Part shown: in pieces, positions 5,906 to 58,940 of the stretch | How positions within the stretch are numbered: the first letter of the stretch is position 1 | Layout: each line of letters opens with the position of its first letter | Source: Candidatus Latescibacterota bacterium | GTDB lineage: Bacteria; Latescibacterota; UBA2968 | NCBI GenBank assembly: GCA_965208125.1 | Contig: OZ242320.1 | Location: 448,001 to 512,000, forward strand | DNA: 64,000 nucleotides | Reading direction: 5' to 3' | Translations under genes and position numbers: made by a program | The notes under the pieces: generated by a model | Databases searched by the model: none | What the model saw: only the letters and a program-made list of their open reading frames with translations | What the model was told of the DNA's origin: nothing

Positions 5906-6145
5906 ATGACCGATGATATTCAACAAAAAGTTACCGACCTGATCGTTGACCAACTCGGAGTTGATGCCGATAGCGTCAATGCCGACGCCCATTTTATTGA
6001 CGATCTGGGCGCAGACTCGCTCGACACAGTCGAACTGGTCATGGCTTTCGAAGAAGAATTTGACATGGAAATCTCCGATGAAGACGCCGAAAAGCTCGAA
6101 ACAGTTGGCGATGCCATCGCATACTTAGACGAACGTTTGGATTAA
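5906..6145 (+). CDS. acpP: acyl carrier protein
   Basis: [20 protein letters not shown]; GGAGG RBS. Confidence 0.98.
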
Positions 6146-6227
6146 TTCGGGAACTGGAAGCTGGAGATAGGTTCTCATCCCATTAATGGATGTAGGAACA
6201 AATCTCCAGCCTTCAGGAGGTCATTCT

Positions 6228-7478: not shown

Positions 7479-7489
7479 CGAGACCATAC

Positions 7490-8266: not shown

Positions 8267-8268
8267 CC

Positions 8269-9511: not shown

Positions 9512-9827
9512 GAATTACTGCGCCCATGCCTTTGCCGTCTCCCCACCCGAAAGTGCCATCACCGAAGAAGACGAAATTCTCGCCGAAAAAGCCGCCGCCT
9601 TCATCGTGAGACGCAAACTCACAGCGCCAGCCATTATGTTACTTGAAACCGGGCGACCCTTTAACTATATTGGCAGCCAACTTTTGACTTTTTTATCGCC
9701 CTTCGTATCTATCATCTTTTCCTCAACAGCTGAGTTTGATCGCTTCACGCGCTTTCTGGAAAAACGGGAAAGCATTCCCTGCCTCATTCGTCACATTGAA
9801 ACCCTGGAAAACAAAAACCATGGATAA
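9474..9827 (+). CDS. conserved hypothetical protein
   Basis: Overlaps both neighbours; IVRRKLTAPAIMLLETGRPFNYIGSQ; host-like codon usage. Confidence 0.7.
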   Translation: MSSKDTSILIRLKNYCAHAFAVSPPESAITEEDEILAEKAAAFIVRRKLTAPAIMLLETGRPFNYIGSQLLTFLSPFVSIIFSSTAEFDRFTRFLEKRESIPCLIRHIETLENKNHG

Positions 9828-43626: not shown

Positions 43627-44022
43627 ATGTTGATCTCAATTGACCACCACAATGGCATACCCGTTTTTCGCCAGATCATCGACCAGGTGAAATTCCACGT
43701 AGTCAGCGGGCTACTCGCGCCGGGAGACGAACTGCCCTCGACCCGCGCATTATCGGGGCAACTGGGACTCAACCCAATGACAGTGAGCAAAGCGTATAGC
43801 CTGTTGGAAGCAGAGGGATTGGTCGAGCGGCGGCGCGGACGACCGTTAACCGTAAAACCCTTACGAGATCAGATCGTACACGCCGAAAAACTGGAACAAC
43901 TCAAACCACAACTCACACAATTGGCAACAATGGTTCGGCAGTTGGGGGTTGATCGGGCGGAAGTCGTAGATCTTTTCCACTCCATCTTAGATACCCTGGA
44001 GGAAGACAATGATGGCACATGA
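43627..44022 (+). CDS. GntR family (YtrA subfamily) transcriptional regulator
   Basis: PVFRQI, LPSTRALS..L.LNP.TV.KAY..LE.EG; short C-terminal domain; precedes an ABC ATPase. Confidence 0.93.
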   Translation: MLISIDHHNGIPVFRQIIDQVKFHVVSGLLAPGDELPSTRALSGQLGLNPMTVSKAYSLLEAEGLVERRRGRPLTVKPLRDQIVHAEKLEQLKPQLTQLATMVRQLGVDRAEVVDLFHSILDTLEEDNDGT

Positions 44023-44902
44023 CCAGACATCTGTATTTGAAGCCACATCACTGACCAAAAAATTCGGTGACACCACAGCGCTCAACTCCGTAACGCTCTC
44101 TCTTGGCGCACATCGCGTAATTGGATTGATCGGACGCAATGGCGGAGGCAAAACCACCTTGATCCAGCACATGATCGGCCTGTATTTACCCACAGAGGGA
44201 ACGTGTCAAACACTGGGCCGCGCGTGCGATCAGCTGGGAGCAAACGAACTTTCGCGCATTGGTGTGGTACATCAAGAAAATCGATTTTTCGAATGGATGA
44301 CTGTCAAACAACATCTGCGCTACGTATCCTCATTTTACGAGATATGGGACCGCGATCTGGAAGCGCATCTGTTGCGCGAACTCGAATTGGAAACATCCGC
44401 ACGCGTGGGCAACCTGTCTTCGGGGAACATGCAAAAATTGGGAATCATACTGGCAGTATGTCATCATCCCGAGCTATTGATCTTAGATGAGCCGGTCAGT
44501 GGCCTGGACCCCATTGCCCGGGAGACATTGTTGAAATTTCTAATGACACTCCTGGCTGAAGACGAAAACACAATCGTGATCTCCTCCCACATTCTGCGAG
44601 ACATCGAAAAAATAGTAGATTGGGTCGTATGCCTCGACGAAGGGACAATCAAAGCCGACAAATCGCTGGACGATCTGCACCAGACATACGCAAAGTGGAC
44701 AGTCACAGGAAACAATCTGCCCCAGCAATTTTCTGAACCTTATATCCTATCGCAAACAGTGAACGGAGTACAGGCACAATTGATCGTCAATCAAGCACTG
44801 GGCAATGTAGATCAATTCAAGCGGACTTATCATGCTAATATCACCAGTCAGTCCCTGAATCTCGACCAGCTATTTCCCATCCTGATTCGGGAGGGCGCAT
44901 AA
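44009..44902 (+). CDS. ABC-2 type transporter ATP-binding protein
   Basis: GRNGGGKT, LSSGN, LILDEP, SSH. Confidence 0.93.
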   Translation: MMAHDQTSVFEATSLTKKFGDTTALNSVTLSLGAHRVIGLIGRNGGGKTTLIQHMIGLYLPTEGTCQTLGRACDQLGANELSRIGVVHQENRFFEWMTVKQHLRYVSSFYEIWDRDLEAHLLRELELETSARVGNLSSGNMQKLGIILAVCHHPELLILDEPVSGLDPIARETLLKFLMTLLAEDENTIVISSHILRDIEKIVDWVVCLDEGTIKADKSLDDLHQTYAKWTVTGNNLPQQFSEPYILSQTVNGVQAQLIVNQALGNVDQFKRTYHANITSQSLNLDQLFPILIREGA

Positions 44903-46371
44903 TGGGTATTCTTCCATTTTTCACATTTTGGCGAAGCCCCGTTTACATTATCATCGCCTTGTGTGTCGGCTGGTTTCTCTTCCAAAACTTGGTGTCTTCC
45001 CATGCACATCGGTTCTCTGTATTCTTTTTATTTTTGTTTTTTGAACTTTACGGTGGGATTATCGGCAGTATTGTAGGAGAGAACCAGCACCGGAGGCTCA
45101 CATGGACCCTGCCGCATTTTCGCAAGCGTCTGATGATCTGGTCGATAATTATCGGACTATTTTCCGTTGTGGTGTGGACGATTATACTGGCTTATGCCCC
45201 CCTCAATGCGTCCTGGTCAACAATTTTACTGGTCAATTTGGGCTTTTATTGTTTGGGATTTGCCCTTTTCGGGGGTTGGAGTTTAGATACTAATCGCCCC
45301 GGGTTGATTTACAAGTGCCGGATCCTCATCGTGTTACCGGTGCTGGCATTAACCTATTTGTGGCAAGAGGTACTCGCTTTTGGAGAGCAACAAAAGTTGG
45401 GTTTGGCTCTCATCGCATTCGCCATCGCAATTGGAGCTCATTATTTCGCCTTTAATCAGACGACTTTTCGCAGTAAGCCATTTTCTTTTTGGGTTGGATC
45501 ATTCTACTCGGGTTTTGATCCTCGAACTCGGGAGTTTTGGCAACAGAATGCAATGAAGATGCGAAAGGCGAGTACCAGGGTATGGCATCTCGATCACATC
45601 GGTACAGGCATCTTCAACTGGCTACGTGCGGGCCAGTATGAAAATTTTGATCTGGGTGGGTGGAAATGGCCTATTTCCGCGTTTAGCGCAGCATTGGCAA
45701 TGGTATTCTTTTTTCTCGGCATGACGACGAAGTTATTCGGATTATTGGGTCAGTCTCCTTACGATTTTGAGACCGTCTCGAAAATGATTTATCACCTGAT
45801 CTTTTATTTTCACCAGTTGGACTCCAACATCATCGGGGGTATATTCGGTGCAGTGTTTTTCGGCATTTGTATGTATCTTTTTATTTCTCCTATTTCACTG
45901 AAATGGGGGTATGTCTATCCGCTTTCTCGCACCCAGCGGATGTGGATTCGGTATAGCAGTTTGCTGGTACAAAATATTTCTTTTTTTGTAGCATCTATTC
46001 TGGTATTGAGTGTTCTGGGCATCTTGGCGGGTATAAAGGTCGGGTTTGCGTCTGAAGGAGATATATCTTTGGAAATATTCTGTGTCCTTGGGTGGTGGGT
46101 CGTTCTTTTCCCGATATTGCAGTGGTTGCAAGTCAAATATGACCTGTATGAATTTCAAAGAACGCGGCGACATACATGGGGGATGGCTGTCCTGATCTTG
46201 GGCATAATTTTGGCTTTTGGATTCACTGGTTTTACCAGCCTGATGCGTGTCTGGTATCCCGATTTGATGCTGACCTATGAAGTGCCGATCCTTTTTCTCT
46301 CTTTTATTCTTTTACAATGGTTCCTATTGTCTCGGCTCAAACGGTATTATGCCACACAGGATCTGATTTAG
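44902..46371 (+). CDS. ABC exporter permease-like polytopic membrane protein
   Basis: About 12 TM segments in two halves; coupled to the ATPase stop. Confidence 0.75.
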   Translation: MGILPFFTFWRSPVYIIIALCVGWFLFQNLVSSHAHRFSVFFLFLFFELYGGIIGSIVGENQHRRLTWTLPHFRKRLMIWSIIIGLFSVVVWTIILAYAPLNASWSTILLVNLGFYCLGFALFGGWSLDTNRPGLIYKCRILIVLPVLALTYLWQEVLAFGEQQKLGLALIAFAIAIGAHYFAFNQTTFRSKPFSFWVGSFYSGFDPRTREFWQQNAMKMRKASTRVWHLDHIGTGIFNWLRAGQYENFDLGGWKWPISAFSAALAMVFFFLGMTTKLFGLLGQSPYDFETVSKMIYHLIFYFHQLDSNIIGGIFGAVFFGICMYLFISPISLKWGYVYPLSRTQRMWIRYSSLLVQNISFFVASILVLSVLGILAGIKVGFASEGDISLEIFCVLGWWVVLFPILQWLQVKYDLYEFQRTRRHTWGMAVLILGIILAFGFTGFTSLMRVWYPDLMLTYEVPILFLSFILLQWFLLSRLKRYYATQDLI

Positions 46372-46634
46372 ATTAAGTAGATTGATAAATCAATTGGGTG
46401 GTATAGTGATTGCGATGCGCTCAACTCGAATCTCGCAGGACAAAAAGCATGATTTTTGTATAATTATGCATATATGCATTTGTTTTCTCATAGATTTTTA
46501 ATTTTTTATACACGTTAATAGCATTTAATAACTTGCAGCGTGCCGCCAGGGTTACGACAATAAGAGACACGAAGTATTGGCGTACCCATTCTTTTGCACA
46601 CGTATGTATTCCTATACCTGCGAAAATAACGTGT

Positions 46635-49600
46635 ATGTTTGAAAACGGAACGATTCTCGACAAAAGATACCAAATCCAGACACATCTGGGAACCGGGGGC
46701 ATGGGCGAAGTCTATCGGGTGTTGGACCTGGAGCAAAGCCAGGAGTGCGCGCTCAAAATTTTGAATACCATGGTGGATCAGAAGGCTGTGCATCGCCGCT
46801 TCCACAGAGAATTTCAAGTGTTGAACAGATTCCAGCACCCGCGTCTGGTCCGCACATACACCTGGGGCTTTGCCGAAGATCGCCCCTATTTTACAATGGA
46901 CTATTTGCCTGGCAAGACATTGGAAAAAATAATCGCCGATCATGCACATTCAGGGCAATTCCGAGCGTCTCACTTTTTTGCTCTGATACAACAACTTGCC
47001 GAGGGATTGGCTTATATCCACGCGCAGGGTGCAGTGCATCGCGATCTCAAGCCATCCAATATCATGGTTTTGGAAACAGAAGAGGGGCTTGAGACTACGA
47101 TCCTGGATATGGGACTGGCGAAACTCAGGCATCTGCACAGTGCCTCCATTACGCAGACCGGAACAGCCATTGGCACGGCAGAATATATGTCGCCAGAGCA
47201 GGGTAAGGGTCTTTGGGTGGATCATCGATCAGACCTGTATTCATTGGGCGTGATCTTATACGAGATGCTCACGGGCGCACCGCCCTTTTCCGGACAAAAT
47301 CCCATATCTATTATTATGAAGCATATTCGAGAGTCACCCCCACCAATAGGTGAAACCCATATCGCGATTCCCGAACAGACAAAACAAATCGTGCTGAAGT
47401 TGCTGGCAAAGGAGCTTGTTGATCGCTATCAGTCGGCAGAGGAACTCCTGCGTGCCTTACCATCGGGGGTTGTGCTACCCGATGACGAGCAACGCGATGT
47501 ACATAGAAAAGTGATGCGGCCGCAATTTGTCGGGCGCGAATCTGAAATGAAGACATTGCGCGCGATGTTGCAAGATGTACAGGCTGGCGAGCAACGCGTG
47601 GTTCTAATCTCCGGTGAGTCCGGTGTGGGAAAAACGAGACTAATTGAGGAACTATTGGGCGACGCTTTGATCCATGATTTTCTGTGTTTGAAAGGTGCGA
47701 GCCAGGAAGAAGGTGGACAAATATACGGTGCGTTGATCAGTGCTTTTCAAGAGACGGTGGATTCGGTGGCAGAGCTACCCGACCCTGCAGAATCGGACAA
47801 ATTTTCTGTTATGGAACGCTGGTTGCAGTTATTAAAGCGCCTGCGGCACAAACAGCCCATTGTGTTGTGTTTGGAAGATATTCAATGGCTCGATGAATTG
47901 ACCCTGGAATTTTTACAGTATGTGTTGCGCGATCCAGAACCCTGTCCGTTTTTGTTATGTCTGACTTGCCGATGGTCTAACCTGGAGCCGCTTGCAGAGG
48001 AAATTGAGAATTTTATACACAGCAATGAATTTGCTGGTGCTACTCATATTCAGTTGGAAAATCTACCGCGAGAAGAGGCGGGGTATTTAGCGGCGTCGAT
48101 GTTGGGGGAGCGATCTGTACCGCCGGATACCTTGCAAACCCTGTTCAGAGAAACGGGTGGGCAACCCCTGTTTGTCGTGGAGGCGGTGAGGACACTGGTG
48201 CAGGCCGATGTGGTTCGGCAGAATGTGTCCGGCGATTGGCAGTGGGGAGAATTTCCCGAAACATTATTATCCGATGATATTTCAGAGGTTTTGTACAGGC
48301 GCATAACTACTCTGCCTGATGTGCAACAGCGGGTGCTGGAATATTCGTGTGTTTTTCTGAGTGATTTTTCTTTTGAATTATTAGCTTCGGTTTGGCGTGG
48401 TGATGAGTTGGAGTTGTTAGATGTACTGGACGACTTGATTGCAGGAGAGCTTTTGACAGCTTGTGGAGAAGGCGAAGATCAATATCGATTTTCACAGGGT
48501 TTGTATCAGCAGGCAATTTATGACCGCCTGCAAGATGTGCGGCGGCGTCTGTTACATCGAGAAATTGGCAATGCTTTGGAAGAGACGGAAGATGCGGAAG
48601 AATTGGCGGAAGAATTGGCGGATCATTTTGCGGCGGCAGAAGGACGAGATAAGGCTGTGAAATATGCGCGTATGGCAGGCAAAAAAGCATTGGAACAACA
48701 CGCTTATCGCCAGGCAATGAGAAAGTTCGAGGCTGTGCGGAACTGGACAGCGGATGACACCTTTGATTCACCTGCAAATGCCATCGACTTTTTGTGTGAT
48801 TATGCAGATGCGTTGCGCAATTGTAGTCAGCACAATTGCGCACTGGAACTTTTAGACGAGGCAAAAGCATTATTGCCCGTTGATAATAAAGATTTAAAGG
48901 CGCGTATTTTGAACGACCAGGGTGAAATTCAAAGCGTACTGCAACATGGGGAAATAGCAGAAAAATATATGCTGGAGGCATTGCAACTTTATCGTGAACT
49001 CGGTGATTTTGAGGGTGAAATTCAGGCGTTGGGTAGTTTGGCTTATTTGTGTGATGTGTCTGAACGACACAAAGATGCTATTGCATATATGCGTCGGGAA
49101 ATAGAGAAACGTAGTATGTTGGGAGACCCGCAAAATGAGGCTTTTATACAAGGACGAGAAAGTCAGGCGGCATTGGTCGAGTTTCGATTTGAGACAGCTA
49201 AGGGGCATTTGGAGACTGCTACAAAGGCCTTTCAGCAACCTGGACTTGAACACCAACGCATTTGGGTACTCAATTTACTTCCAAGAGTTTATTTTTATCT
49301 GGGTGATTTCAATCGTGCAGAAGCCGTTTGCAACGAAGCAATTAGTGAATGGCAGAAGCGAGGCGTTGTGTACTGGGAAGCGATGAATTTTCTCTATCTG
49401 GGAGAATTGGCTCTGGAACAAGGTAATTTTGTCGAGGCTCTGGAATACGCCGAGACCTCATCAGAACGATTTTTGCAAACACCGAGAAGAGATTATGTCT
49501 ATAGCGCTTATGCGATTGCAGCAACGGCTGCTGCGAGAATGGGAGATACAGAAGCAGCACTTGAATGGGCAGAAAAAGCCAGTGAAGGAGTGCAGCAAGC

Positions 49601-51443
49601 ATCGGGTATGTACACGGGCATATTGCCCCTGGTGCATTGTGGTATTGGTGTTGCTTTGGCTCAAGCAGGGCGGATAACCGAGGCTGAAGAGGCTTTTGAG
49701 CAGTCTATTGAATGCCGTAGAGAATCCAAAGGCGACCACTGGGCGCGTGCATTGCTGATGGCTGGGGAGTTTTATCTCCAACGCGATGATATGACCAGAG
49801 CTACAGCACATCTCGAAGCGGCAAAACAGGCATTTAGAGAAATGGAAATGTCTTATTTTCTGGAGAAAACACAGGTGTTATTAAATCAATTTGATGGATC
49901 TTCTCGAGGCGGAGATGATGCCCCAACCCGTAGCTCTGAGATTTCAGTCGAGACGTTGTCTGTTGATCGCTTGCGCTTCCTCTACGATGTGAGCAGGGAA
50001 TTGACAACAGAACGCGATGTCAGAGTGTTATTGGACCGGATTTTGGGTAATTTGTTGGCTGTTTATCCAGCAGAGCGCGTGCTTGTTGCGCTAAAAAATG
50101 ATACACCAAAAGGCTTTATGGTTGATGCTGTGCGCCACTACAATTTAGAGGTAGATGATATAGAAGCACTGAGCCAGGGTATTATTCGCCAAGTTATTGA
50201 GACAAATGAACCCGTTTTGAGCTTTGATGCCCAGACAGACGAAAGATTCAATCGGTACCAAAGCGTAATAGATTACCACATTCGGTCTGTATTGTGCGTG
50301 CCCGTATTCCATCTTAACGAAGGTGTGATGGGTGCGCTGTATGTGGATCATCGCGGCATGGGCAACGCATTTTCTGAAGCCGATCAGACGTTTTTGCAGG
50401 CATTTGCTAATCTGGTAGGCGTGGCACTGGTCAATGCGAGGATGTACGAACAATTGGAAGAGAAAGCACAATATTTGCAACAACAGGTCGAAAGGCGATA
50501 TCAGCTTGACGACCTGATCGGACAAAGTGATGCCATGCAGAGGGTTTACCAGCTTATCGAACGCGCTGCAAAGAGTGATATTCCCGTGCTTATTCAAGGT
50601 GAAACAGGTACGGGCAAGGGATTGGCTGCGCGTGCCATACACTACAATAGTGCATGCAAAAACCAGCGATTTTTGTCGCAAAATTGTGCTGCTCTTTCAC
50701 CAGAGTTGTTGCAGAGTGAGTTGTTTGGGTACAAAAAAGGTGCGTTTACCGGGGCGACTGAAGATCACATGGGGATTTTTGAGGCTGCCAATGGCGGTAC
50801 GGTTTTTCTGGATGAAATCGCCGATGCCCCGCCACAGTTGCAAAAGAGTTTGTTGCGGGTGTTGCAAGAGGGTGAGATTCGGCGTGTGGGAGAAACAGAG
50901 GATCGCACAGTGGATGTACGCATTATTGCAGCGACCAATCGGGACTTAAAAAAAGAAGTAGAACAAGGGAGGTTTCGCGAAGATTTGTATTATCGGTTGC
51001 ACGGGATTCAGATCGATATGCCACCTTTGCGAGAACGCATGGAAGATGTGCCGTTATTGGCCGAACATCTGCTCATCCGAACAAAAGAAGATGCAAACAA
51101 GTCGGTTGGGAGGCTGACAGTGGGGGCAATCAGGGCGCTCACAAGTTATGACTGGCCGGGCAATGTGCGCGAGTTGGAAAATAAGGTTCGACTTGCGGTC
51201 GCATTGTCGGAAGAAGGTAGTGAAATCACGTCCGATTTGTTTTCAGAAGCTGTCGGGCACGCACTGTCAGATACTCCTGTTGAATACCAGGAGCGTTTAC
51301 AAGATCGTGTTCGGGAATATGAGAAACGATTGATTATGGATGCGCTCGAGAAATGCGTGGGCAATATTACACATACAGCTGAAGAATTGGGCATGACGCG
51401 CGCGGGTTTACAAAAAAAGATCAATCGTTTGGGGTTGAGATAG
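46635..51443 (+). CDS. Ser/Thr kinase - STAND/AAA ATPase - TPR - GAF - sigma54 AAA+ activator - Fis HTH multidomain regulator
   Basis: LGTGGMGEVY, ALK, HRDLKPSN, DMG, YMSPE; FVGRE..GESGVGKT, LEDIQW; TPR helices; SVLCVP..LYVD GAF; GETGTGK, QSELFG..GAFTGA, FLDEI, RFREDLYYRL, WPGNVREL; C-terminal HTH. Start at ATG 46635. Confidence 0.93.
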   Translation: MFENGTILDKRYQIQTHLGTGGMGEVYRVLDLEQSQECALKILNTMVDQKAVHRRFHREFQVLNRFQHPRLVRTYTWGFAEDRPYFTMDYLPGKTLEKIIADHAHSGQFRASHFFALIQQLAEGLAYIHAQGAVHRDLKPSNIMVLETEEGLETTILDMGLAKLRHLHSASITQTGTAIGTAEYMSPEQGKGLWVDHRSDLYSLGVILYEMLTGAPPFSGQNPISIIMKHIRESPPPIGETHIAIPEQTKQIVLKLLAKELVDRYQSAEELLRALPSGVVLPDDEQRDVHRKVMRPQFVGRESEMKTLRAMLQDVQAGEQRVVLISGESGVGKTRLIEELLGDALIHDFLCLKGASQEEGGQIYGALISAFQETVDSVAELPDPAESDKFSVMERWLQLLKRLRHKQPIVLCLEDIQWLDELTLEFLQYVLRDPEPCPFLLCLTCRWSNLEPLAEEIENFIHSNEFAGATHIQLENLPREEAGYLAASMLGERSVPPDTLQTLFRETGGQPLFVVEAVRTLVQADVVRQNVSGDWQWGEFPETLLSDDISEVLYRRITTLPDVQQRVLEYSCVFLSDFSFELLASVWRGDELELLDVLDDLIAGELLTACGEGEDQYRFSQGLYQQAIYDRLQDVRRRLLHREIGNALEETEDAEELAEELADHFAAAEGRDKAVKYARMAGKKALEQHAYRQAMRKFEAVRNWTADDTFDSPANAIDFLCDYADALRNCSQHNCALELLDEAKALLPVDNKDLKARILNDQGEIQSVLQHGEIAEKYMLEALQLYRELGDFEGEIQALGSLAYLCDVSERHKDAIAYMRREIEKRSMLGDPQNEAFIQGRESQAALVEFRFETAKGHLETATKAFQQPGLEHQRIWVLNLLPRVYFYLGDFNRAEAVCNEAISEWQKRGVVYWEAMNFLYLGELALEQGNFVEALEYAETSSERFLQTPRRDYVYSAYAIAATAAARMGDTEAALEWAEKASEGVQQASGMYTGILPLVHCGIGVALAQAGRITEAEEAFEQSIECRRESKGDHWARALLMAGEFYLQRDDMTRATAHLEAAKQAFREMEMSYFLEKTQVLLNQFDGSSRGGDDAPTRSSEISVETLSVDRLRFLYDVSRELTTERDVRVLLDRILGNLLAVYPAERVLVALKNDTPKGFMVDAVRHYNLEVDDIEALSQGIIRQVIETNEPVLSFDAQTDERFNRYQSVIDYHIRSVLCVPVFHLNEGVMGALYVDHRGMGNAFSEADQTFLQAFANLVGVALVNARMYEQLEEKAQYLQQQVERRYQLDDLIGQSDAMQRVYQLIERAAKSDIPVLIQGETGTGKGLAARAIHYNSACKNQRFLSQNCAALSPELLQSELFGYKKGAFTGATEDHMGIFEAANGGTVFLDEIADAPPQLQKSLLRVLQEGEIRRVGETEDRTVDVRIIAATNRDLKKEVEQGRFREDLYYRLHGIQIDMPPLRERMEDVPLLAEHLLIRTKEDANKSVGRLTVGAIRALTSYDWPGNVRELENKVRLAVALSEEGSEITSDLFSEAVGHALSDTPVEYQERLQDRVREYEKRLIMDALEKCVGNITHTAEELGMTRAGLQKKINRLGLR

Positions 51444-51450
51444 ACGTTGA

Positions 51451-51577
51451 ACAGGTGCATCCAACTGTATGCAGTAGTGCATCCGACTGTATGCACCTGT
51501 CTATCCTTATATAATTCAGACAGTTATGTTGATTTTCTTTAAATAAGCGATTTATAGGTGCATCCAACTGTATGCAC
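51451..51577. promoter_or_regulatory. three palindromic enhancer (UAS)-like sites GTGCAT-N8-ATGCA(C)
   Basis: GTGCATCCAACTGTATGCA 51455-51473, GTGCATCCGACTGTATGCAC 51477-51496, GTGCATCCAACTGTATGCAC 51558-51577; about 110-230 nt upstream of a -24/-12 promoter. Confidence 0.75.
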
Positions 51578-51638
51578 TTACACCAGAATCTCGCAGATTT
51601 AGCACAAATCATTCTCAAATTTTATCTCTTTGTTTTTC

Positions 51639-51670
51639 AAGCACTTGAGCACATTCAAGTGCTTTTTTTT
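51639..51670 (+). terminator. hairpin plus T8 between enhancer and promoter (terminator-like; overlaps an IHF-like site)
   Basis: aagcacttga-N6-tcaagtgctt then T-run; TTTCAAGCACTTG is 1 mismatch from WATCAANNNNTTR. Confidence 0.5.
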
Positions 51671-51686
51671 ATTCTGAGACGATTTT

Positions 51687-51702
51687 TGGCACGGATCTTG
51701 CA
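51687..51702 (+). promoter_or_regulatory. sigma54 (-24/-12) promoter
   Basis: TGGCACGGATCTTGCA is an exact match to TGGCACG-N4-TTGCW. Confidence 0.9.
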
Positions 51703-51757
51703 CTATAAAGAGGGCAAACCGTTATGGCACAGGATTTTTCCATTAAAGGAGGATAAC

Positions 51758-51937
51758 ATGGCAACACGACGCAAGTTGAATTTGATCAATGGAACGATAG
51801 ATCAAGAAGGTAGCATCCTCAGGTATCAAGCTACGAACAGTTTCGAAGTAGGTGCCTGTCCCCCTGGTAGGGTGGTTGTTCCGACTCTGCCCTTTCCCGA
51901 TGATGACGATAGAGACGAATTTGATCCGGCTGAGTGA
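51758..51937 (+). CDS. putative RiPP precursor peptide, 59 aa (MATRRKLNLINGTIDQEGSILRYQATNSFEVGACPPGRVVVPTLPFPDDDDRDEFDPAE)
   Basis: AAGGAGG RBS 5 nt before the ATG; first gene after the sigma54 promoter; 28 nt before a radical SAM gene; leader RKLNLING resembles SCIFF/PapA leaders. Confidence 0.8.
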   Translation: MATRRKLNLINGTIDQEGSILRYQATNSFEVGACPPGRVVVPTLPFPDDDDRDEFDPAE

Positions 51938-51965
51938 ATTATCTCTATTCTGAGGAGTACCTGGC

Positions 51966-53408
51966 ATGCTGTGTATTCAAAAATGCGACATACATCTTTT
52001 TCAAACTGAAGAGCACAAACAGCCGATTGTCTATCAGGTTGAGACCGGTCTGTTTTTTAAACTGGATACTCTTTTCCAGTCAATTTTAGAGTGCTGCGAG
52101 GGGTTGTCTGCTTCGCAGGTTATTCAGATGCTGGCTGATCAATACGAGGCAGAAGAGATTGTCGAGGCTATCGAGGAACTGGCTCAGGTGGGTTTGATTT
52201 CGGATGGTGCTCTACCTGTGGTAGCCAATGTGCCGACAACAGAAGGGGTGGCAGCCTGTGGGGTTTCGCAGACAGATCGGTTGCAGGTGTCGTTGCACGT
52301 TTCGCATACGTGCAATATCCAATGTGCGTATTGCTTTGCTCACGGTGGGGATTACGGCGGTAAGGCTATGCTGATGCAACCAGAGGTTGCTGAGCAAGCG
52401 ACACGCTGGATTGTCACCGAGGCTCAGGTGTTCGGGCGGTGCCAGATTGATTTTTTTGGCGGGGAGCCGCTCTTGAATTTTCCGCTGCTGCGCGAGTTGG
52501 TACCGTCTGCCAAATCCCTGGGCGCGCGATTGGGTGTGCAGGTTGGTTTTGGCATTGTGACCAATGGCACGTTGTTGACCGACGAGATGAAGCAGTTTTT
52601 GATTGATGAAAAGTTTCAGATTAAAGTCAGCCTGGATGGGGGACGTAAAACACAGGATCGCATTCGCAAGTTTCACAATGGTTCTGGAACTTATGATGTC
52701 GTGGCAAAGAATGTACAGAAACTGACTGCTGAGGTACCTGAGCGCGTGTATTTGCAGGCTGTTATGACAGCGTATGATATGGATGAGGATCAGATTGCCG
52801 ATGCGTTGCGTTCTCTGGGTACTGAAAACGCGCTCATCGATCCGGCTGTCGTTTCACCGGATGCGCCCTATGCGATTCGAGAAGAACACATACCTGTTTT
52901 GAAGCAACAAATTTACAAGCGAAGCCGGCGTGCGCTCAAAGCCATTTTGAATGGTGAAGAGTGTGAAGAGTTTGATCCGCGGATTCAAAAATTGCTGACA
53001 CGCAAAAAATCCTGTCACGGGTGCCTGGGTGGCAAGCAGTATTTGGCGATTGCAGCAGACGGATCGATTTATTTTTGTTCGAGTTTGGCCGACGCGCCCG
53101 AGTTTAAGATGGGTGATGTGTTTGCGGGTATTGATCGCGAAAAGCAGCAGCATTTTGACGCGCAGTTCAATGTGAATAATCGTCCTGAGTGCAAGACATG
53201 CTGGGCGCGCAACTTGTGTGGTGGCGGATGTCTTTGGGATGCGCGGACGACAACGGGTGATCCGATGTATCCAAACCCAGTTTCCTGTGAACAGACGCGC
53301 TATCGCTATGAGTTGGCGATGGAGATGTGTATGGAAATTGCAGAAGCAGATGCGTCTTTGTTGCCGCGACGATATGATCTGGAAGTGGCATCTGAAGCAG
53401 ACAAGTAA
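51966..53408 (+). CDS. radical SAM/SPASM peptide maturase with N-terminal RRE (PqqD-like) domain
   Basis: N-terminal 3 strands plus helices (YQVETGLFFKLD...EEIVEAIEELAQVGLI); CNIQCAYC; FFGGEPLL, VTNGTLL, VSLDG; SPASM GC..YFC..CKTC.5.C.3.C..C; GAGGAG RBS. Confidence 0.93.
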   Translation: MLCIQKCDIHLFQTEEHKQPIVYQVETGLFFKLDTLFQSILECCEGLSASQVIQMLADQYEAEEIVEAIEELAQVGLISDGALPVVANVPTTEGVAACGVSQTDRLQVSLHVSHTCNIQCAYCFAHGGDYGGKAMLMQPEVAEQATRWIVTEAQVFGRCQIDFFGGEPLLNFPLLRELVPSAKSLGARLGVQVGFGIVTNGTLLTDEMKQFLIDEKFQIKVSLDGGRKTQDRIRKFHNGSGTYDVVAKNVQKLTAEVPERVYLQAVMTAYDMDEDQIADALRSLGTENALIDPAVVSPDAPYAIREEHIPVLKQQIYKRSRRALKAILNGEECEEFDPRIQKLLTRKKSCHGCLGGKQYLAIAADGSIYFCSSLADAPEFKMGDVFAGIDREKQQHFDAQFNVNNRPECKTCWARNLCGGGCLWDARTTTGDPMYPNPVSCEQTRYRYELAMEMCMEIAEADASLLPRRYDLEVASEADK

Positions 53409-53425
53409 ATTTTCATAGCATTTGC

Positions 53426-53468
53426 AAAACTATCCTTAAGCTTACAAACTTAAGGATAGTTTTTTTTT
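53426..53468 (+). terminator. strong intrinsic terminator closing the peptide-rSAM transcript
   Basis: aaaactatccttaag-N8-cttaaggatagtttt plus T-run. Confidence 0.85.
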
Positions 53469-53524
53469 CTGAAAAATCCGTATATTCTAATACCATTTGA
53501 TATTGAGATTAGTAGAGGTGAACC

Positions 53525-54712
53525 ATGTTAAGATCAAATGTTGAATGGAAAAAAAAATATACAAGTACAGTTAAAATATCTATAGGCTTACTTTGTCTTG
53601 CGTCGTTCATTGCCTGTGGTGCTTCGAAAAGTATTGATTCTGATGTTCTATTTTTCGGTGATATACCACCATTGTCGTCAATGGATCATTTGGCAATCAT
53701 CGGAGGCGCAACAAACAAATCAATTGTTGTTGTTGATATTGCAAATAAGAAACAAGCAGGTACAATCACTTTCGAAAAAATTATTCAAGGATGTGCTATC
53801 TCACCCCAGGATAGAAGCATCTGGTTGACATTTACTTTTTGGAGTAATCAGAAAGGGATATTTAAGCTCAATTTTGACAGCAAACCCGAGATTGTAAACC
53901 TTATTCCGGATTTACAAGGCAACTTGCATTTCAACCATGATGGACGAAGACTTTATGTCACGCCAGGTTCTGAAAAGCTTTACATTATTGACACACAATC
54001 CAATCAATTAGTGGAGACAGTTTCTACCATTACCGGAAATCACGGAGAAGGTTGGGCATTTTTTAACGCCAGTGAAGCACAAAATGGACTGATTGCTTTA
54101 ACGGGTATGCCTCTGCGATTTGAAGCTGTAAATGAAGGATTCAACGTTTATTCTGATTATACAAAAACCTTTCTCTTTTTACTTGATGAAAAACGAACTG
54201 TTATACCGCTTGAGTTTGTTGGGGGATTTTCGACTCCCCCGATTTTTTCATTTGATAACAGATTAATAAGCACACTCAGTAAAGAAGAAAAATCAGTCTC
54301 AATTTATGATCTTGATTCTAAAAAAATGAACAGTATTCCTATTGGTGGAGATGTTGTGACATTCGGTGGATACGATAACGACAATGACATTTTCTATGTT
54401 TTATCAAGAAATTTTGATCGAGAATACGGAATTTTAGAAGGCATCACCACCCTGATATTATTGGACATAAGATCCAAAAGCATCATTGATACGCGCACCA
54501 TAGCCGGTAATTATTGGAACGGTGTGTATGATAGAGTATCTCAGACCATCCTATTGGTAGGGCCACATACTGAGGATGTGCGTGAAATACATAATAGAAC
54601 AATTCCTATTTCCAGTTTAACGATTTATGATCCGCATCAAGACCAAATTGTTGATCATATTTCAATTGATGGAGGAACATCCCTGGGAGCTGAGATTTTC
54701 TTGGCCCCCTAA
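53525..54712 (+). CDS. putative lipoprotein with YncE/YVTN-like beta-propeller
   Basis: Basic N-terminus, hydrophobic stretch, FIA-C lipobox; blades such as IVVVDIANKK, FNHDGRRLYVT, LYIIDTQSNQLVETV; low GC. Confidence 0.7.
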   Translation: MLRSNVEWKKKYTSTVKISIGLLCLASFIACGASKSIDSDVLFFGDIPPLSSMDHLAIIGGATNKSIVVVDIANKKQAGTITFEKIIQGCAISPQDRSIWLTFTFWSNQKGIFKLNFDSKPEIVNLIPDLQGNLHFNHDGRRLYVTPGSEKLYIIDTQSNQLVETVSTITGNHGEGWAFFNASEAQNGLIALTGMPLRFEAVNEGFNVYSDYTKTFLFLLDEKRTVIPLEFVGGFSTPPIFSFDNRLISTLSKEEKSVSIYDLDSKKMNSIPIGGDVVTFGGYDNDNDIFYVLSRNFDREYGILEGITTLILLDIRSKSIIDTRTIAGNYWNGVYDRVSQTILLVGPHTEDVREIHNRTIPISSLTIYDPHQDQIVDHISIDGGTSLGAEIFLAP

Positions 54713-54771
54713 CTTAAAAGTTGGGAAGTTCCTTCGTAGATAAGAGAAATAGCCCACACCTCCATTTCGGG

Positions 54772-54922
54772 GAATCTGGCCAATTCGGCCGGACTGCGAC
54801 CAGCGCGCACAAGCTCGACGATTTGGCGCTTCAACTCGAGTGGATAAGGGGACGTGTTGGTGGCATAGTGGGTCTCCTTTCTAACTACTGATAAAGGTAC
54901 TCACCGAAACGGATCAAGTCCA
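54772..54922 (-). mobile_element. IS3-family left end with frameshifted, truncated OrfA
   Basis: End begins TGGACTTGATCC...; AAGGAG RBS; ATG 54866 MPPTRP/PYPLELKRQIVELVRAGRSPAELAR is an HTH_Tnp_1-like start across a frameshift; no OrfB. Confidence 0.7.
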
Positions 54923-54928
54923 GGGTAA

Positions 54929-55435
54929 CTACTGTTTGCTGAGTTTTGATATTAATCTATTTATCTCTTTTGCCATTTGATCCACAGATTCTTGAGGCCG
55001 CTTGATCGGAATTGGAATAATGCCATTACGAATTTCTGAGACTATAATCGGTACTCCAACCAGCTTTTCATCTATGATTATACCAATACGCTTTTTGAGA
55101 TAGGTGCGGCTTATGGTCCGGAATTTTTCACTTCCTTCTGGATTACAGTGCAATAATAGAGTTGTATAAGGACTCGGGTTAGATGTTTGTGTAATGGTTG
55201 CACGTTTAATATCAGAAAGGCCCAAAAGAACCTCAGGCTTAAGTGCGGATTGCTTACCCGAATCTATCAATTCCATGACAGATGAACTGTCGCTTCTATT
55301 GGTATCGATAAGTCGTACCTGAATATATGTTTTATCTATAGTCTGTTCTTTACCTTGAGCAGGATTTAGTGCACCAAACAAAGCTGACAGAATGCTCAGA
55401 CCGAAAAGTCTTAGAATATGCATTTGTGCCCCCAT
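54929..55435 (-). CDS. exported protein with SecDF P1-head-like domain
   Basis: Signal peptide; LHCNPEGSEKFRTISRTYLKKRIGIIIDEKLVGVPIIVSEIRNG matches the SecD P1 head pattern; no SecD TM domain. Confidence 0.7.
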   Translation of the reverse strand: MGAQMHILRLFGLSILSALFGALNPAQGKEQTIDKTYIQVRLIDTNRSDSSSVMELIDSGKQSALKPEVLLGLSDIKRATITQTSNPSPYTTLLLHCNPEGSEKFRTISRTYLKKRIGIIIDEKLVGVPIIVSEIRNGIIPIPIKRPQESVDQMAKEINRLISKLSKQ

Positions 55436-55836
55436 TCTTTTTCCTTAAGTTCCGGAATCAATCTGGTCAAAGACTTGATGGCGTTTCGATTTTAGCTGAT
55501 TCAAAGTCAATACCATCTTGGTTAGAATTTACGCCTCTTCAAATTAGTTCTCTTCCTCCCGATGAGGAAGTAGAAATTTTTTTGATGACATGGGACGTGA
55601 AGTCGGTAGCAGTCACTGTTAAGGATGATTTTTTGACATTGGGGACACAGGTTCCATATGGTCAGGCTTGGAAGATGGCGGGAGTGGTGCCTCACATGTC
55701 CATCTGCTTGTAAAACAAATTGGACATGCAATGACTCTTCACTTCCCGAAGACGCAAATTCCTTTTGTGACAGATCGGAGTTTATTGTTATTTTTATGAG
55801 TAGATCGCCTTATGATGAAAAAAGAAAGGAATTGTT

Positions 55837-56712
55837 GTGAAACGAATATTTTTGGTGTTCTTTTGCCTATCTTTGGGGTTGGTTGGTTCTTTACCTGCTA
55901 TTCAGAAAATGCAGATTACAGAACCTTCTCAACTACCAGAAGATCGTATGCTTCCCGACATTCCCTGGCCTCAAAGTTTGATACAGAAAATAGAAGGCCT
56001 TCATGTGGAACTTGTCGGATATCTAAAATCAGAAAATCATGAGATGTACGTATCAAGGATGGAAGAATTTTTAAATGAGGAGATTCATGATACGGAGTCT
56101 CTATTGGTACTAAACTATACAATAGGGCAAATGTGCCGGTTTGTAGCTTATGAGAAATCGGATGCTGATGTACGCCGTAGATGGTACCAAAAGGCGGTTG
56201 GATTCAACAAGACTGCGATTGAACTTGCACGCACGGATTCTTCCAAATTCAAACCCTATCTGGTCAGATGCTACTTTGGTCTTGCTGAGTGCTATGATGG
56301 GTTAGAAGAAAAAAATCTTGCTCTGGACATGTATCAGCGTTTGGTTGGTTTCAAGGGGGTTGGACACGGAAAATTGAAGGATGACCTTGCTTCAGGTGGC
56401 ATTGGCAATGTTGTTCGCCTATGGAGAGACTTACAGCGCGATCCTGTCGAGTTGCGTAAATATCTAAGAAATATAGCGACATCGAATATGGACAACGAAA
56501 TAGGTTTCGTAGCACTTCAAAAATTGGTTGACTTCGATTTATTAGAAGGAAATTTGCAGATTGCAAGAACTACTCTGAATGAACTGAAGATGCGTTATGG
56601 TGATATTCAAAAATTAGGCGGCCAGATGCCTTCACTTCAAATTAAAGGACTTGAAGATCAATTTAATATTGCGGAAAAATCTAAACATAAAGAACCTGGT
56701 CATAAGCATTGA
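55837..56712 (+). CDS. exported TPR-like helical protein
   Basis: AAAGGA RBS, GTG start, signal peptide; CYFGLAECYDGLEEKNLALDMYQRLV TPR-like helix pair. Confidence 0.7.
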   Translation: MKRIFLVFFCLSLGLVGSLPAIQKMQITEPSQLPEDRMLPDIPWPQSLIQKIEGLHVELVGYLKSENHEMYVSRMEEFLNEEIHDTESLLVLNYTIGQMCRFVAYEKSDADVRRRWYQKAVGFNKTAIELARTDSSKFKPYLVRCYFGLAECYDGLEEKNLALDMYQRLVGFKGVGHGKLKDDLASGGIGNVVRLWRDLQRDPVELRKYLRNIATSNMDNEIGFVALQKLVDFDLLEGNLQIARTTLNELKMRYGDIQKLGGQMPSLQIKGLEDQFNIAEKSKHKEPGHKH

Positions 56713-56760
56713 GGAAAATCCAATTCTAAGCCTCTTTGAGTGACCGCTTGAAAGTGAGAA

Positions 56761-57651
56761 ATGCATAAAATTTCAGACTTCAAAATGTCGGAACAGCTTA
56801 GTCTGGACACAGGCTGGAGCATTGGTGAGAGAGCGTTTGAGAGAATAGAAACTTTGCTTCGTCAGATGTCTCCAGTAGAAAAAATTCTCGAATTTGGAAG
56901 TGGTCCGAGTTCTATCCGTCTGGCGATGGCGTTTTCTGAAGCCGAGGTTCTGTCTATAGAAGGCGACTGGCGGAATTATTTAGAGACCACGAGTCTGATG
57001 CGAGCATTATGGGATAAGCGCAATCTCTCGATCAAATATCGTCCAATTACACTTGAATCTTATGGAGACGCGGAATTTTTGACTTATGAAGATGGGATGT
57101 TTTGGGAGGAAGAGTTGGATTGCGTGATTATTGATGGTCCACCTGTCTATACCTTGCGAGGTCGAGAGGCGTGTCTCTACCAGGTTTATGATCAGATCAA
57201 GACTGGTGGTCTGGTTATTCTGGATGATTTCAGAAGGCGATTTGAGAAGCAAATTGTCAAGAACTGGCTGTCCGTCTATCCCGATAGTTTTACAGTGGCG
57301 ATTATCCGCGAAGACCACCATCTGGCCGTGCTGCACAAGATCAAATCCGTGACACCGTGTTGGGATGCGCCTTGTAGGCTTTCGGATGTTCAAACTGTCA
57401 GTAAAACTCGCGCTCGAATTGCAAAGGCATTATCGCATGTTGATGATGTATATTTGAGAACGTTGATCAAAGCTACTAACAGTGAAACAGATTTGATTGG
57501 CCTGTTCAATACCCTTCGCAACATCCATGGAGTGACGCCTGAGCATATCCAGGCGTTCGCGGACCGAACTACACTCCCACCGGAAACTCAAAAAAGAAAA
57601 CAGAATGCCTGTTATATGACAATCGTCAATGAGTTTTTCCAGAACGGTTAA
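56761..57651 (+). CDS. class I SAM-dependent methyltransferase-like protein
   Basis: ILEFGSGPSS, SIEGD, VIIDGPP...R, GGLVILDD; start may be ATG 56785. Confidence 0.8.
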   Translation: MHKISDFKMSEQLSLDTGWSIGERAFERIETLLRQMSPVEKILEFGSGPSSIRLAMAFSEAEVLSIEGDWRNYLETTSLMRALWDKRNLSIKYRPITLESYGDAEFLTYEDGMFWEEELDCVIIDGPPVYTLRGREACLYQVYDQIKTGGLVILDDFRRRFEKQIVKNWLSVYPDSFTVAIIREDHHLAVLHKIKSVTPCWDAPCRLSDVQTVSKTRARIAKALSHVDDVYLRTLIKATNSETDLIGLFNTLRNIHGVTPEHIQAFADRTTLPPETQKRKQNACYMTIVNEFFQNG

Positions 57652-57846
57652 ATGAAGACGAAGCGCGCTAACAGGCAGGGATAGTCAAACTATCTGCGTT
57701 CAGGCTCAAAAGTGATTGTCCCGAATTGAAATCTTTTCAAAATTGGCTGTAGATCATTTACTTGCTTAAAAACGGCATCCAAATGGGGAGCGCTCTATTA
57801 GATGCCGTTTGTTTTGCTTTTTTGGGTGGGCGACAGATTGTTAGTA

Positions 57847-58839
57847 ATGGGAGAAATATATCAATCAAAAAAATCCGGCCTCAATAAATGGCCGCTCATT
57901 GGACAGCATTCCTCACTCTTAGACGTGCAAAAGCGCGCGTACCGCGTGGCAAATAGCGAATTGCCCGTCAACATCAGTGGAGAAACTGGCACGGGCAAGG
58001 AATTGCTCGCCCGTTATGTTCACGGCATTAGCCACCGCAACAGGGGACCATTTGTAACCGTTGACTGCGGCATACTCTCTTCTGAAATGGCGCGCAGCGA
58101 GTTATTTGGACATGTTCGAGGTGCTTTTACCGGCGCCAGCGAAACGCGCACTGGACTGGTTGAATCTGCCCGAGGCGGTACGTTATTCCTCGATGAAGTA
58201 GGCGAATTGCCAGCCAATCTTCAGTTACAATTGCTCCGCCTGGTACAGGAACAGGAATTTCGCCGCGTAGGCGAAGCATCCATGCGCCGGTCCGATGTGC
58301 GCCTGATCACTGCGACACACTGCAACTTGCGAAAAATGGTGCGAAAAGGGACTTTCCGAGAAGATCTCTATTACCGCTTAACTGTCGTCCCTCTGCATTT
58401 GCCACCCCTGCGAAAGCGGATGAGCGATTTGCCACTTCTGGTCACGCATTTTTGCCAGGAAATGAAAGGATACACCCGCGCATTTTCCCCCGAAGTGATT
58501 CAAAAGATGTCGCGTTATGCATGGCCGGGCAATGTTCGGGAACTACAACACGAAGTCGCCCGATTAATGGTCATGGCCGAAGGTAAAATTATCCGCGTAT
58601 CCGATTTGCGCCCTCGCATTCGAGGATCCAAAGCAGAGGTCGATGTATTTGACCTCCCGTTTAAGGAAGCCAGACAACTGGCGAACAGCCAGTTTATGCG
58701 AGAGTATCTTCACAGAGCTTTGCAGCGAACACAGGGCAATGTAACCCAGGCAGCGCAACAATGCGGGATTGGCCGACAGTATTTCCAATTGCGTATGTCT
58801 GAATACGGGCTAAAGTCGGCATCTTACAAACAAAAATAA
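57847..58839 (+). CDS. sigma54-dependent activator lacking an N-terminal sensor domain (AAA+ plus Fis HTH)
   Basis: GETGTGKE, SELFGHVRGAFTGA, FLDEVGEL, FREDLYYRL, WPGNVREL, GNVTQAA; only about 15 aa precede the AAA+ domain. Confidence 0.92.
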   Translation: MGEIYQSKKSGLNKWPLIGQHSSLLDVQKRAYRVANSELPVNISGETGTGKELLARYVHGISHRNRGPFVTVDCGILSSEMARSELFGHVRGAFTGASETRTGLVESARGGTLFLDEVGELPANLQLQLLRLVQEQEFRRVGEASMRRSDVRLITATHCNLRKMVRKGTFREDLYYRLTVVPLHLPPLRKRMSDLPLLVTHFCQEMKGYTRAFSPEVIQKMSRYAWPGNVRELQHEVARLMVMAEGKIIRVSDLRPRIRGSKAEVDVFDLPFKEARQLANSQFMREYLHRALQRTQGNVTQAAQQCGIGRQYFQLRMSEYGLKSASYKQK

Positions 58840-58856
58840 TACCTCGCGGTGTACTA

Positions 58857-58890
58857 AAAAACGTCAATGGAAAAACCCATTGACGTTTTT
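58857..58890. terminator. bidirectional-type intrinsic terminator
   Basis: aaaaacgtcaatgg-N6-ccattgacgttttt. Confidence 0.75.
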
Positions 58891-58940
58891 CCTTGCAGGA
58901 CGTTTCTTGAGCTTATCTCAACTCTTCACAAGGACCTGTC

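Follow-up and report, generated by a model that had tools for sequence, protein, structure and literature searches.

The 64 kb stretch of Candidatus Latescibacterota DNA analysed here (the window) contains, at 46635–53468 on the forward strand, three consecutive genes: one for a giant regulator, one for a peptide of 59 amino acids (aa), and one for a radical S-adenosylmethionine (SAM) enzyme with a SPASM domain. Comparison with related loci indicates that these are probably a self-contained cassette for a new family of peptides that are made by the ribosome and then modified post-translationally (RiPPs), with a dedicated sigma-54 activator and with modification of the peptide by the radical SAM enzyme. 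The features of the cassette are listed here, with domain residues numbered in the open reading frame (ORF) of the regulator, which is open from TTG 46533 (46533–51443).

46635–51443, forward: regulator gene, 1602 aa (Pfam domains, conserved catalytic motifs, onset of homology to paralogues)
46668–47447, forward: Ser/Thr kinase domain of the regulator (Pfam Pkinase, ORF residues 46–305)
47523–47942, forward: STAND P-loop NTPase (Pfam AAA_16, ORF residues 331–470)
ca. 48630–49952, forward: TPR sensor (Pfam TPR/TPR_MalT matches at ORF residues ca. 880–1060)
50019–50429, forward: GAF domain (Pfam, ORF residues 1163–1299)
50514–51260, forward: sigma-54 AAA+ domain with GAFTGA (Pfam Sigma54_activat at ORF residues 1328–1494, then AAA_lid_14)
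51309–51428, forward: Fis-type helix-turn-helix (HTH) domain (Pfam HTH_8, ORF residues 1593–1632)
51455–51474, forward: predicted operator (upstream activating sequence), copy 1, GTGCATCCAACTGTATGCAG; palindrome, starting 12 nt past the regulator stop codon
51477–51496, forward: predicted operator, copy 2, GTGCATCCGACTGTATGCAC; palindrome
51558–51577, forward: predicted operator, copy 3, GTGCATCCAACTGTATGCAC; palindrome, ca. 110 nt 5' of the −24 element
51639–51672, forward: hairpin AAGCACTTGAG-loop-TCAAGTGCTT with an 11-pair stem at 51639–51664, then T8 (terminator scan)
51687–51702, forward: predicted sigma-54 promoter TGGCAC-N5-TTGCA (−24 GG / −12 GC); single exact match in the window
51745–51753, forward: ribosome-binding site AAAGGAGGA, 4 nt before ATG 51758; conserved in paralogues
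51758–51937, forward: precursor peptide gene, 59 aa (ORF, substitution pattern, conserved upstream of the radical SAM gene)
51966–53408, forward: predicted peptide maturase, 480 aa, with an N-terminal domain like a RiPP recognition element (RRE), then radical SAM and SPASM domains (Pfam, NCBIfam, CteB match, invariant columns, structure model and Foldseek)
53426–53471, forward: intrinsic terminator of the peptide and radical SAM operon, 15-bp stem and T-run at 53426–53463 (terminator scan)

An initial annotation of this DNA had described the same chain of elements: a giant kinase-STAND-TPR-GAF-sigma-54 activator, three palindromic sites, an exact −24/−12 promoter, a strong ribosome-binding site ahead of a 59-aa peptide, a radical SAM/SPASM gene and a strong terminator. 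All of these were found – the Pfam domains of the activator were recovered in that order, the palindromic sites are three copies of a single 18-nt palindrome, the peptide ORF has 59 codons, and the Radical_SAM, Fer4_12 and SPASM domains of the enzyme all exceed their Pfam cutoffs. The central reading of the annotation, in which a sensor-activator would drive a sigma-54 operon for a peptide and a radical SAM enzyme of an undescribed family, is supported by the comparisons below. A second terminator-like hairpin, between the third palindrome and the promoter, was absent from it. A literature search found no description of this precursor, of this clade of enzymes, or of sigma-54 control of a RiPP or ranthipeptide; supplements of sequence similarity network studies were outside the scope of the search and could list the cluster to which the radical SAM enzyme belongs.

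Regulator, peptide and enzyme genes travel as one unit

The regulator gene, the gene for a peptide of ca. 60 aa and the radical SAM/SPASM gene travel as one unit of DNA. By blastn, the window aligned with each of five paralogous or orthologous loci in a single block of 84–85% identity, running from 46634/5 to 53384–53408. Homology was confined to the stretch from the ATG of the regulator gene through the stop codon of the radical SAM gene, and the flanks in the window did not match those of the five other copies. The flanking genes vary between loci; at the window copy, those on one side encode a GntR regulator, an ABC protein and a protein of unknown function, and those on the other encode unknown and TPR proteins.

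The initial annotation had proposed a search for conserved short ORFs and for kinase-activator genes beside homologous radical SAM genes, and both are there. The peptide gene lies upstream of the radical SAM gene in 37 of 38 distinct loci, the other locus being ambiguous; among these 37, one peptide gene is cut by the end of a contig, one is shortened by an insertion of ca. 280 nt, and one, at a decaying locus, has a frameshift. Of the 22 loci that were fetched with long flanks, 18 have the complete regulator, with its six domains, directly upstream of the peptide and radical SAM genes. In the remaining four, the regulator has no TPR (one locus, the second copy of the window genome), is interrupted (two), or is missing beside a split radical SAM gene (one). 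Within the window's genus, both the radical SAM gene and the regulator are found in 15 of 20 genomes, and the other five have neither.

The family of radical SAM enzymes is sharply bounded: ca. 64 clusters fall at 39–93% identity, after which there is a drop to 31–35%, where the SCIFF maturases of Firmicutes begin. The relatives at 86% identity or above collapse to about seven clusters. Members were found in 25 of 168 Latescibacterota genomes (one per species), all in three families of one class; the 15 genomes of the window's genus mostly have two or three copies. In a GTDB-wide scan, every match of at least 43% identity was titled Latescibacterota or Gemmatimonadota/Gemmatimonas. The near-identical loci are from Candidatus Latescibacterota metagenome-assembled genomes, some of which have public labels that read Gemmatimonadota or Poribacteria. 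Among the genomes searched, the cassette is so far restricted to Latescibacterota. A scan of JGI metagenome contigs added about seven short loci of the family (L151–L156 and L158) and did not enlarge the set of paired regulators and peptides.

The genome from which the window comes has a second cassette at ca. 2.46 Mb (C1:2461950–2467161, or 5939–11162 of locus L006). Its peptide is 61% and its radical SAM enzyme 92% identical to those of the window copy, and its operators are of the H type described below. Its regulator, of 1093 aa, has cleanly lost, in frame, the TPR together with the start of the GAF domain, a segment equivalent to 48618–50161 in the window.

Several cassettes are in decay. 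In L050 (genome G058), L052 (G014), L043 (G006) and L025, regulators are broken by an opposite-strand ORF of 466 aa or by other inserts, and the decaying set also holds one frameshifted peptide and one shortened peptide that is split from its radical SAM gene by an insert of ca. 280 nt. In four loci from another genus of the same family (L027, L028, L079 and L152), a second radical SAM/SPASM gene, with a product ca. 26% identical, comes directly after the family's own gene; this arrangement is possibly a two-enzyme variant.

Control region and regulator

The palindrome TGCATCCRACTGTATGCA occurs three times in the 64 kb (at 51456, 51478 and 51559) against a chance expectation of 0.10, and none of 100 shuffled sequences reached three. 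Between cassettes, the type of palindrome follows one position of the recognition helix of the regulator's HTH domain, which defines Q, H and Y classes. Regulators with the helix GLQKK are paired with TGCATCC-N4-GKATGCA in 17 of 17 cassettes (46 sites), those with GLHKK with TGTAWMC-N4-..TACA in 12 of 12 (20 sites), and those with SLYRK with TRTATC-N5-GATRCA in three of six. There were no cross-class matches between operator and helix among the 35 distinct cassettes. Operator copy 1 has the same position and type in all 17 of the Q-class cassettes. The co-variation of operator and helix ties the palindromes to the regulator as its predicted operators, and is the best evidence here for that assignment.

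The plan of the intergenic region is common to all 27 cassettes of the genus that were compared: the regulator stop codon, two adjoining palindromes, an AT-rich spacer and one more palindrome, then the hairpin and T-run, the promoter, the ribosome-binding site and the ATG. The promoter motif TGGCAC-N5-TTGCW has one match in the 64 kb (expectation 0.06; six of 100 shuffled sequences had at least one), and GGCAC-N5-TTGC is retained in 27 of 27 genus cassettes. In the sister genus, where the radical SAM enzyme is ca. 52% identical, palindromes, a hairpin with a T-run, and TGGTAC-N5-TTGC are found in unchanged order with different sequences. Judged by this motif, transcription of the operon would require RpoN; the window genome has one rpoN (a gene with Sigma54_DBD), and a search of it for the domain of sigma-54 activators gave 25 strong matches.

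Of the 27 genus cassettes, 19 have the stem of the hairpin at 51639–51672 exactly and the others nearly so, and in the sister genus a hairpin and T-run with a different stem sequence stand at the equivalent place. Because it is conserved as a structure beside the promoter, the hairpin would end the regulator transcript and insulate the operon. It is probably the terminator of the regulator gene, shielding the sigma-54 promoter from read-through.

The likely start of the regulator gene is ATG 46635, since orthologues begin there and DNA homology to paralogues begins at 46634/46635. One public gene call (P0244, 1580 aa) begins 22 codons later, which would cut the glycine loop of the kinase. The Pfam score is 247.7 bits for Sigma54_activat, 100 bits for AAA_16 and 67 bits (above cutoff) for TPR_12; TPR_MalT, at 38.3 bits, is under its 45-bit cutoff. 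Catalytic motifs were surveyed in 26–32 orthologues and paralogues of the regulator. GAFTGA is kept in 31 of 32, the other having GSFTGA, and the sigma-54 Walker A and B motifs are conserved in 32. Thirty keep both the STAND motif GE(S/A)GVGK(T/S) and the LED box, and the HRD, D(M/L)G and Lys motifs of the kinase are conserved as well. The regulator clusters number more than 120. The kinase-STAND module occurs only twice in the window genome, each time at a cassette.

Precursor peptide and maturase

The peptide of the window copy has a leader at residues 1–20 (MATRRKLNLINGTID.EG.I), a variable linker at 21–33, an invariant Cys at 34, six hypervariable residues at 35–40 (PPGRVV), the sequence VPTLPFP at 41–47, and then an acidic tail, DDDDRDEFDPAE. 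In 32 cassettes of the genus, the leader consensus is M-A/T-T-R-R-K-L-x-L-I/V-N-G-x-x-D-x-E-G-x-I, and the linker is followed in the same order by the invariant Cys, six hypervariable residues, V-P-P/L-L/V-P-F-P and the acidic tail. The tail is usually DDDDWDDF in the genus; the window copy has R instead of W. A profile search gave 261 peptide clusters, each unnamed or 'hypothetical'. The arrangement Cys-x6-VPxxPFP is present in 119 of the best 120 of these 261; the intervening residues number exactly six in every case and come in 78 versions. Peptides of distant genera retain the (L/I)(I/V)N(G/A) of the leader and a Cys ahead of a motif rich in Pro and aromatic residues, for example CVWPWFPILPPP or LSCDPSFPLF.

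The peptide is under purifying selection apart from the six residues after the invariant Cys. The ratio of non-synonymous to synonymous substitution rates (dN/dS), pooled over pairs of sequences, was 0.27 in the leader, 0.46 in the linker, 1.00 in residues 35–40, 0.11 in VPPLPFP and 0.23 in the tail. This pattern indicates that the ORF is translated and constrained, with one segment that is free or diversifying.

The peptide had no matches among Pfam and NCBIfam models, and no usable match in a search of the ESM Atlas. A search of sequencing runs for 46635–53468 returned 22 partial matches (best share 0.37), all of them contigs, and found no RNA set. A double-glycine site for cleavage of the leader was considered and rejected: G(G/A/S) precedes the Cys in only ca. 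17 of 32 peptides.

The enzyme scores 55 bits against Pfam Radical_SAM (cutoff 29.5) and 24.6 bits against SPASM (cutoff 21.5). Among 13 diverse members of the family, the CxxxCxxC cysteines (C116, C120 and C123) are invariant, as are seven SPASM cysteines (C353, C371, C409, C412, C418, C422 and C441). The nearest solved structure is CteB (5wgg), which aligns over residues 20–452 with an E value of 7.8e-60. CteB was also first (E 1e-24) in a Foldseek search with an AlphaFold2 (AF2) model of the enzyme, followed by anSME, ChlB, TigE and SuiB. The model has strands at residues 4–32 and three helices at 35–74, as in an RRE, with a predicted local distance difference test score (pLDDT) of 79–88 over residues 31–70. 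Several homologues carry a precomputed PF05402 match. On the sub-threshold PqqD match given below, the homology to CteB and a model of moderate confidence, the N-terminal domain appears to be like an RRE.

A match to a characterised family was one of the points that the initial annotation had left for checking, and the enzyme falls below the cutoff of every NCBIfam model. Its best matches were the SCIFF maturase (265.3 bits against a cutoff of 425), QhpD (248.1 against 453), the Nif11 maturase (244 against 519) and PapB (225.5 against 340). From these similarities, the cassette may work like a RiPP of the CteB/SCIFF, QhpD or PapB type under control of the NifA/NtrC type, while lying outside each of the named families.

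The CteB/ScfB maturases of SCIFF (TIGR03974; 5wgg/5why) share the CxxxCxxC core and seven-Cys SPASM domain and, it appears, the RRE-like N-terminal domain, with a precursor gene immediately upstream; they give the best NCBIfam match and a match to the PDB over the full length in both sequence and fold, and a thioether from Cys would be the expected chemistry by analogy. Unlike them, the enzyme scores far under the SCIFF cutoff, and identity to SCIFF maturases is only 30–32%, after a sharp fall from the 39% or more found within the enzyme's own family. The SCIFF precursor has six Cys in ca. 45 residues; the precursor in the window has one conserved Cys in 59 residues and a Pro/aromatic-rich core with a hypervariable hexapeptide. 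Taxon and regulation differ too.

QhpD and PapB form thioethers from Cys to Asp or Glu, and the PapB precursor has Cys-x3-Asp repeats. The QhpD/QhpC (TIGR03906) and PapB (NF047865) systems resemble the cassette in having related radical SAM/SPASM enzymes, and the genus peptide has an Asp-rich tail. They differ from it in several ways: both scores are under cutoff, no qhp genes were found nearby, and the window peptide has a single Cys without Cys-x3-Asp repeats, its first Asp being 14 residues away. In other genera with this family of enzymes, moreover, the peptides have no Asp-rich tail.

The C-terminal GAF-AAA+(GAFTGA)-HTH_8 part of the regulator aligns with the enhancer-binding proteins NifA (391 bits) and NorR (356 bits), and the upstream palindromic sites and −24/−12 promoter are like those of NtrC/NifA systems. 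Unlike those proteins, the regulator has a kinase-STAND-TPR module of ca. 1150 residues fused in front, and it misses all of the NCBIfam equivalog cutoffs. The N-terminal part resembles the TOMM kinase/cyclase fusion (TIGR03903; E 1.4e-86), in which a Ser/Thr kinase, AAA_16 and TPR stand beside a peptide-modification system. However, the score is 291.5 bits against a cutoff of 705.75, the output is a sigma-54 activator with no cyclase domain, and the partner is a radical SAM/SPASM enzyme. A paper on Myxococcus describes a precedent for sigma-54 control of natural-product genes, in this case for polyketides and non-ribosomal peptides (PMC7910581).

In the proposed mechanism, the regulator gene would be transcribed from its own promoter, with the transcript halting at the hairpin at 51639–51672, and the regulator would occupy the three operators. 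An input through the kinase/STAND-TPR module, the GAF domain or both would release the AAA+ domain, which would remodel the sigma-54 polymerase at 51687–51702, and the peptide and maturase genes would be co-transcribed as far as the terminator at 53426. The maturase would grip the conserved leader through its RRE-like domain and modify the peptide, most likely, as with CteB/SCIFF, QhpD and PapB, by linking the Cys34 sulfur to a carbon atom in a residue further downstream. By that analogy the leading candidate for the reaction, put forward tentatively, is formation of a thioether by the invariant Cys. The fixed spacing of six residues to VPPLPFP suits a macrocycle of defined size, and the closed ring would display the hypervariable hexapeptide.

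Weight of the evidence and alternative functions

A number of points weigh against a RiPP cassette with its own activator. All of the support is computational, from sequence comparison and a structure model. The enzyme is under every NCBIfam maturase cutoff, so that its chemistry is not confidently transferable; its PqqD (RRE) match is sub-threshold (19.8 bits against a cutoff of 23.4), and the AF2 model has a mean pLDDT of 66, falling below 50 in the SPASM part. Only one Cys is conserved in the peptide, an acceptor residue is not evident, and other genera have unrelated tails in place of the acidic one seen in this genus. As the initial annotation had noted, there is no protease or transporter between promoter and terminator, and none is conserved in the flanks of the fetched loci. 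The three operator patterns were written after viewing the same sequences that they describe, and that of the Y class fits just half of its cassettes. The helix classes are clades, so the co-variation of operator and helix counts as a few concerted changes rather than as 35 independent ones.

The regulator is also found apart from the other two genes. Orphan regulators, with no peptide and radical SAM pair, are common in the sister genus, where 14 of 15 genomes have an orthologous regulator (ca. 1600 aa, 39–44% identical across the N-terminal half) and four of 15 have the radical SAM gene; there are two in the window's genus. The genes after 15 orphan regulators (13 from the sister genus and the two from the window's genus) encode TPR proteins, a transposase, a leucine-rich repeat/dockerin protein, a DUF218 protein, or a 345-aa sigma-54 activator with no sensor. 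A sigma-54-like promoter lies ca. 235–266 nt past the stop codon in nine of these 15 loci, and the other six, including a distant split regulator of another family (L148), have no promoter match. Because of the orphans, the regulator is not strictly dedicated, and the idea that it is exclusive to the peptide and radical SAM operon was rejected. The genes that follow the orphans are unrelated to the pair. Either the peptide and radical SAM genes have repeatedly been lost together, or the pair was introduced downstream of a regulator that already existed.

Small activators of 340–381 aa, with AAA+ and HTH domains only, lie directly behind the giant orphan regulators L136, L138, L141 and L146 of the sister genus, and are 45–47% identical to the AAA+ part of the window regulator. 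The window has a sensor-less activator of 345 aa, also with AAA+ and HTH only, followed by a UvrD-like helicase of 1076 aa (57802–62171). Small activators behind giant regulators are a hint of an activator cascade.

Four other functions were weighed against the RiPP cassette. In the first, a private autoinducer loop, the STAND-TPR sensor of the activator would recognise as its ligand the modified peptide of the same cassette, or the hexapeptide ring within it. A cassette would then be a self-amplifying channel, and the two or three cassettes of a genome would be separate, insulated circuits for autoinduction or kin recognition. The TPR is the most divergent and fastest-evolving domain of the regulator, with a mean pairwise identity of 75% (83–87% for the kinase, STAND, GAF and AAA+ domains) and a dN/dS of 0.30 (0.17–0.19 for the same four). 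The identity of peptide residues 35–40 correlates best with that of the TPR (Mantel r 0.43, against 0.10–0.22 for the other five domains, in 32 cassettes), despite the GAF, AAA+ and HTH domains that lie between TPR and peptide. The partial r given the other domains is 0.40, or 0.31 with one cassette per distinct ring. In addition, different rings are found on the cassettes of one genome.

The effect, however, is small. Within an HTH class, the TPR identity is 0.790 between cassettes of the same ring type and 0.756 between those of different types; across classes, the values are 0.765 and 0.753. Ring types largely track the HTH classes and orthologous groups (H predominates in GW and Q in PY, and GVF is all Y), and common orthology could yield the pattern, provided that the conserved domains are kept alike by gene conversion. 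For related sequences, Mantel tests also over-reject. Because the class-wise effect is small and confounded with orthologous groups, the correlation between TPR and ring is treated as a lead. The second cassette of the window genome, from which the TPR is cleanly deleted, keeps an intact peptide and radical SAM gene, and the unit has no exporter. An autoinducer loop is, on balance, unlikely.

A cofactor or enzyme-subunit precursor of the QhpC/QhpD, PQQ or mycofactocin type, with the cross-linked peptide staying in the cell, is very unlikely. It would suit the lack of a protease or transporter in the unit, and QhpD is the second-best NCBIfam match (248 bits). That score is far under the QhpD cutoff of 453, and no dehydrogenase or other partner gene is conserved beside the cassette, the flanks of which differ from locus to locus. 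Such a product should be conserved, yet the six residues beside the invariant Cys have a dN/dS of 1.0 and 78 versions, and there are two or three divergent copies per genome. The suggestion of the initial annotation that the product may act as a protein subunit fits poorly with this core stretch.

A STAND NTPase with a rapidly evolving TPR sensor is a typical mark of a conflict system. The cassette could be a conflict or defence module in which the STAND-TPR part senses a molecule of an invader or competitor and induces a modified peptide that is toxic or protective. The regulator varies most in its TPR, cassettes are patchy in the genus, multicopy and sometimes decayed, and the window copy sits in a stretch of lower G+C. 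Against this, PADLOC found only generic domains (a Ser/Thr kinase, an RtcR-type AAA+-HTH, and viperin-type radical SAM at 34–60 bits) and no system-specific match, no phage genes were found nearby, and a transcriptional output would be slow for abortive defence. A defence role is highly improbable.

It is hardly credible that the short ORF is a regulatory leader or an unrelated small protein, with the enzyme, like anSME, having some other protein as its substrate: the matches include anSME families (110.7 bits) and anSME is the second structural match, but the ORF is kept immediately upstream across radical SAM identities of 43% to 93%, its leader is conserved, its gene and that of the enzyme are under a common promoter and terminator, and anSME-type enzymes do not have the RRE-like N-terminal domain that appears to be present here.

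If the RiPP reading of the cassette is correct, the family offers RiPP discovery a minimal and diversified target – a maturase ca. 91% identical across copies and at least 261 precursor clusters. The precursors differ mainly in a fixed-length segment of six residues, and one maturase is apparently the scaffold for a natural peptide library. The source phylum, Latescibacterota, has no cultured model, and two genes should suffice for reconstitution in E. coli. In the regulator, a single polypeptide combines a eukaryote-like kinase with a STAND switch, a TPR sensor, a GAF domain and a sigma-54 motor, and the three natural pairs of operator and recognition helix are candidates for orthogonal sigma-54 switches. 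If the peptide does act back on the sensor of its cassette, the system would represent a novel form of peptide signalling in bacteria, of an architecture not known from diderm-type uncultured phyla.

On the upstream side of the window copy, 43627–46371 encodes a GntR regulator, an ABC ATPase and a 489-aa protein of no family. These genes mark the orthologous site of the Q-class copy, because they are syntenic in L039 (G020). Downstream, a block of ca. 4.2 kb with low G+C (0.40–0.43, against ca. 0.52 elsewhere) lies at 53525–57651, between the operon terminator and the next conserved gene. Its ORFs encode proteins of 395 aa (no family), 168 aa (minus strand, SecDF_P1_head), 291 aa (TPR) and 296 aa (no family). 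The block looks like an insertion, because the 345-aa activator comes directly after the radical SAM gene in L037, L039 and L041. Within it, a stretch of 138 nt (54775–54911) is 85% identical to 11819–11955 of L040, downstream of the cassette of another genome, and may be a small repeated element.

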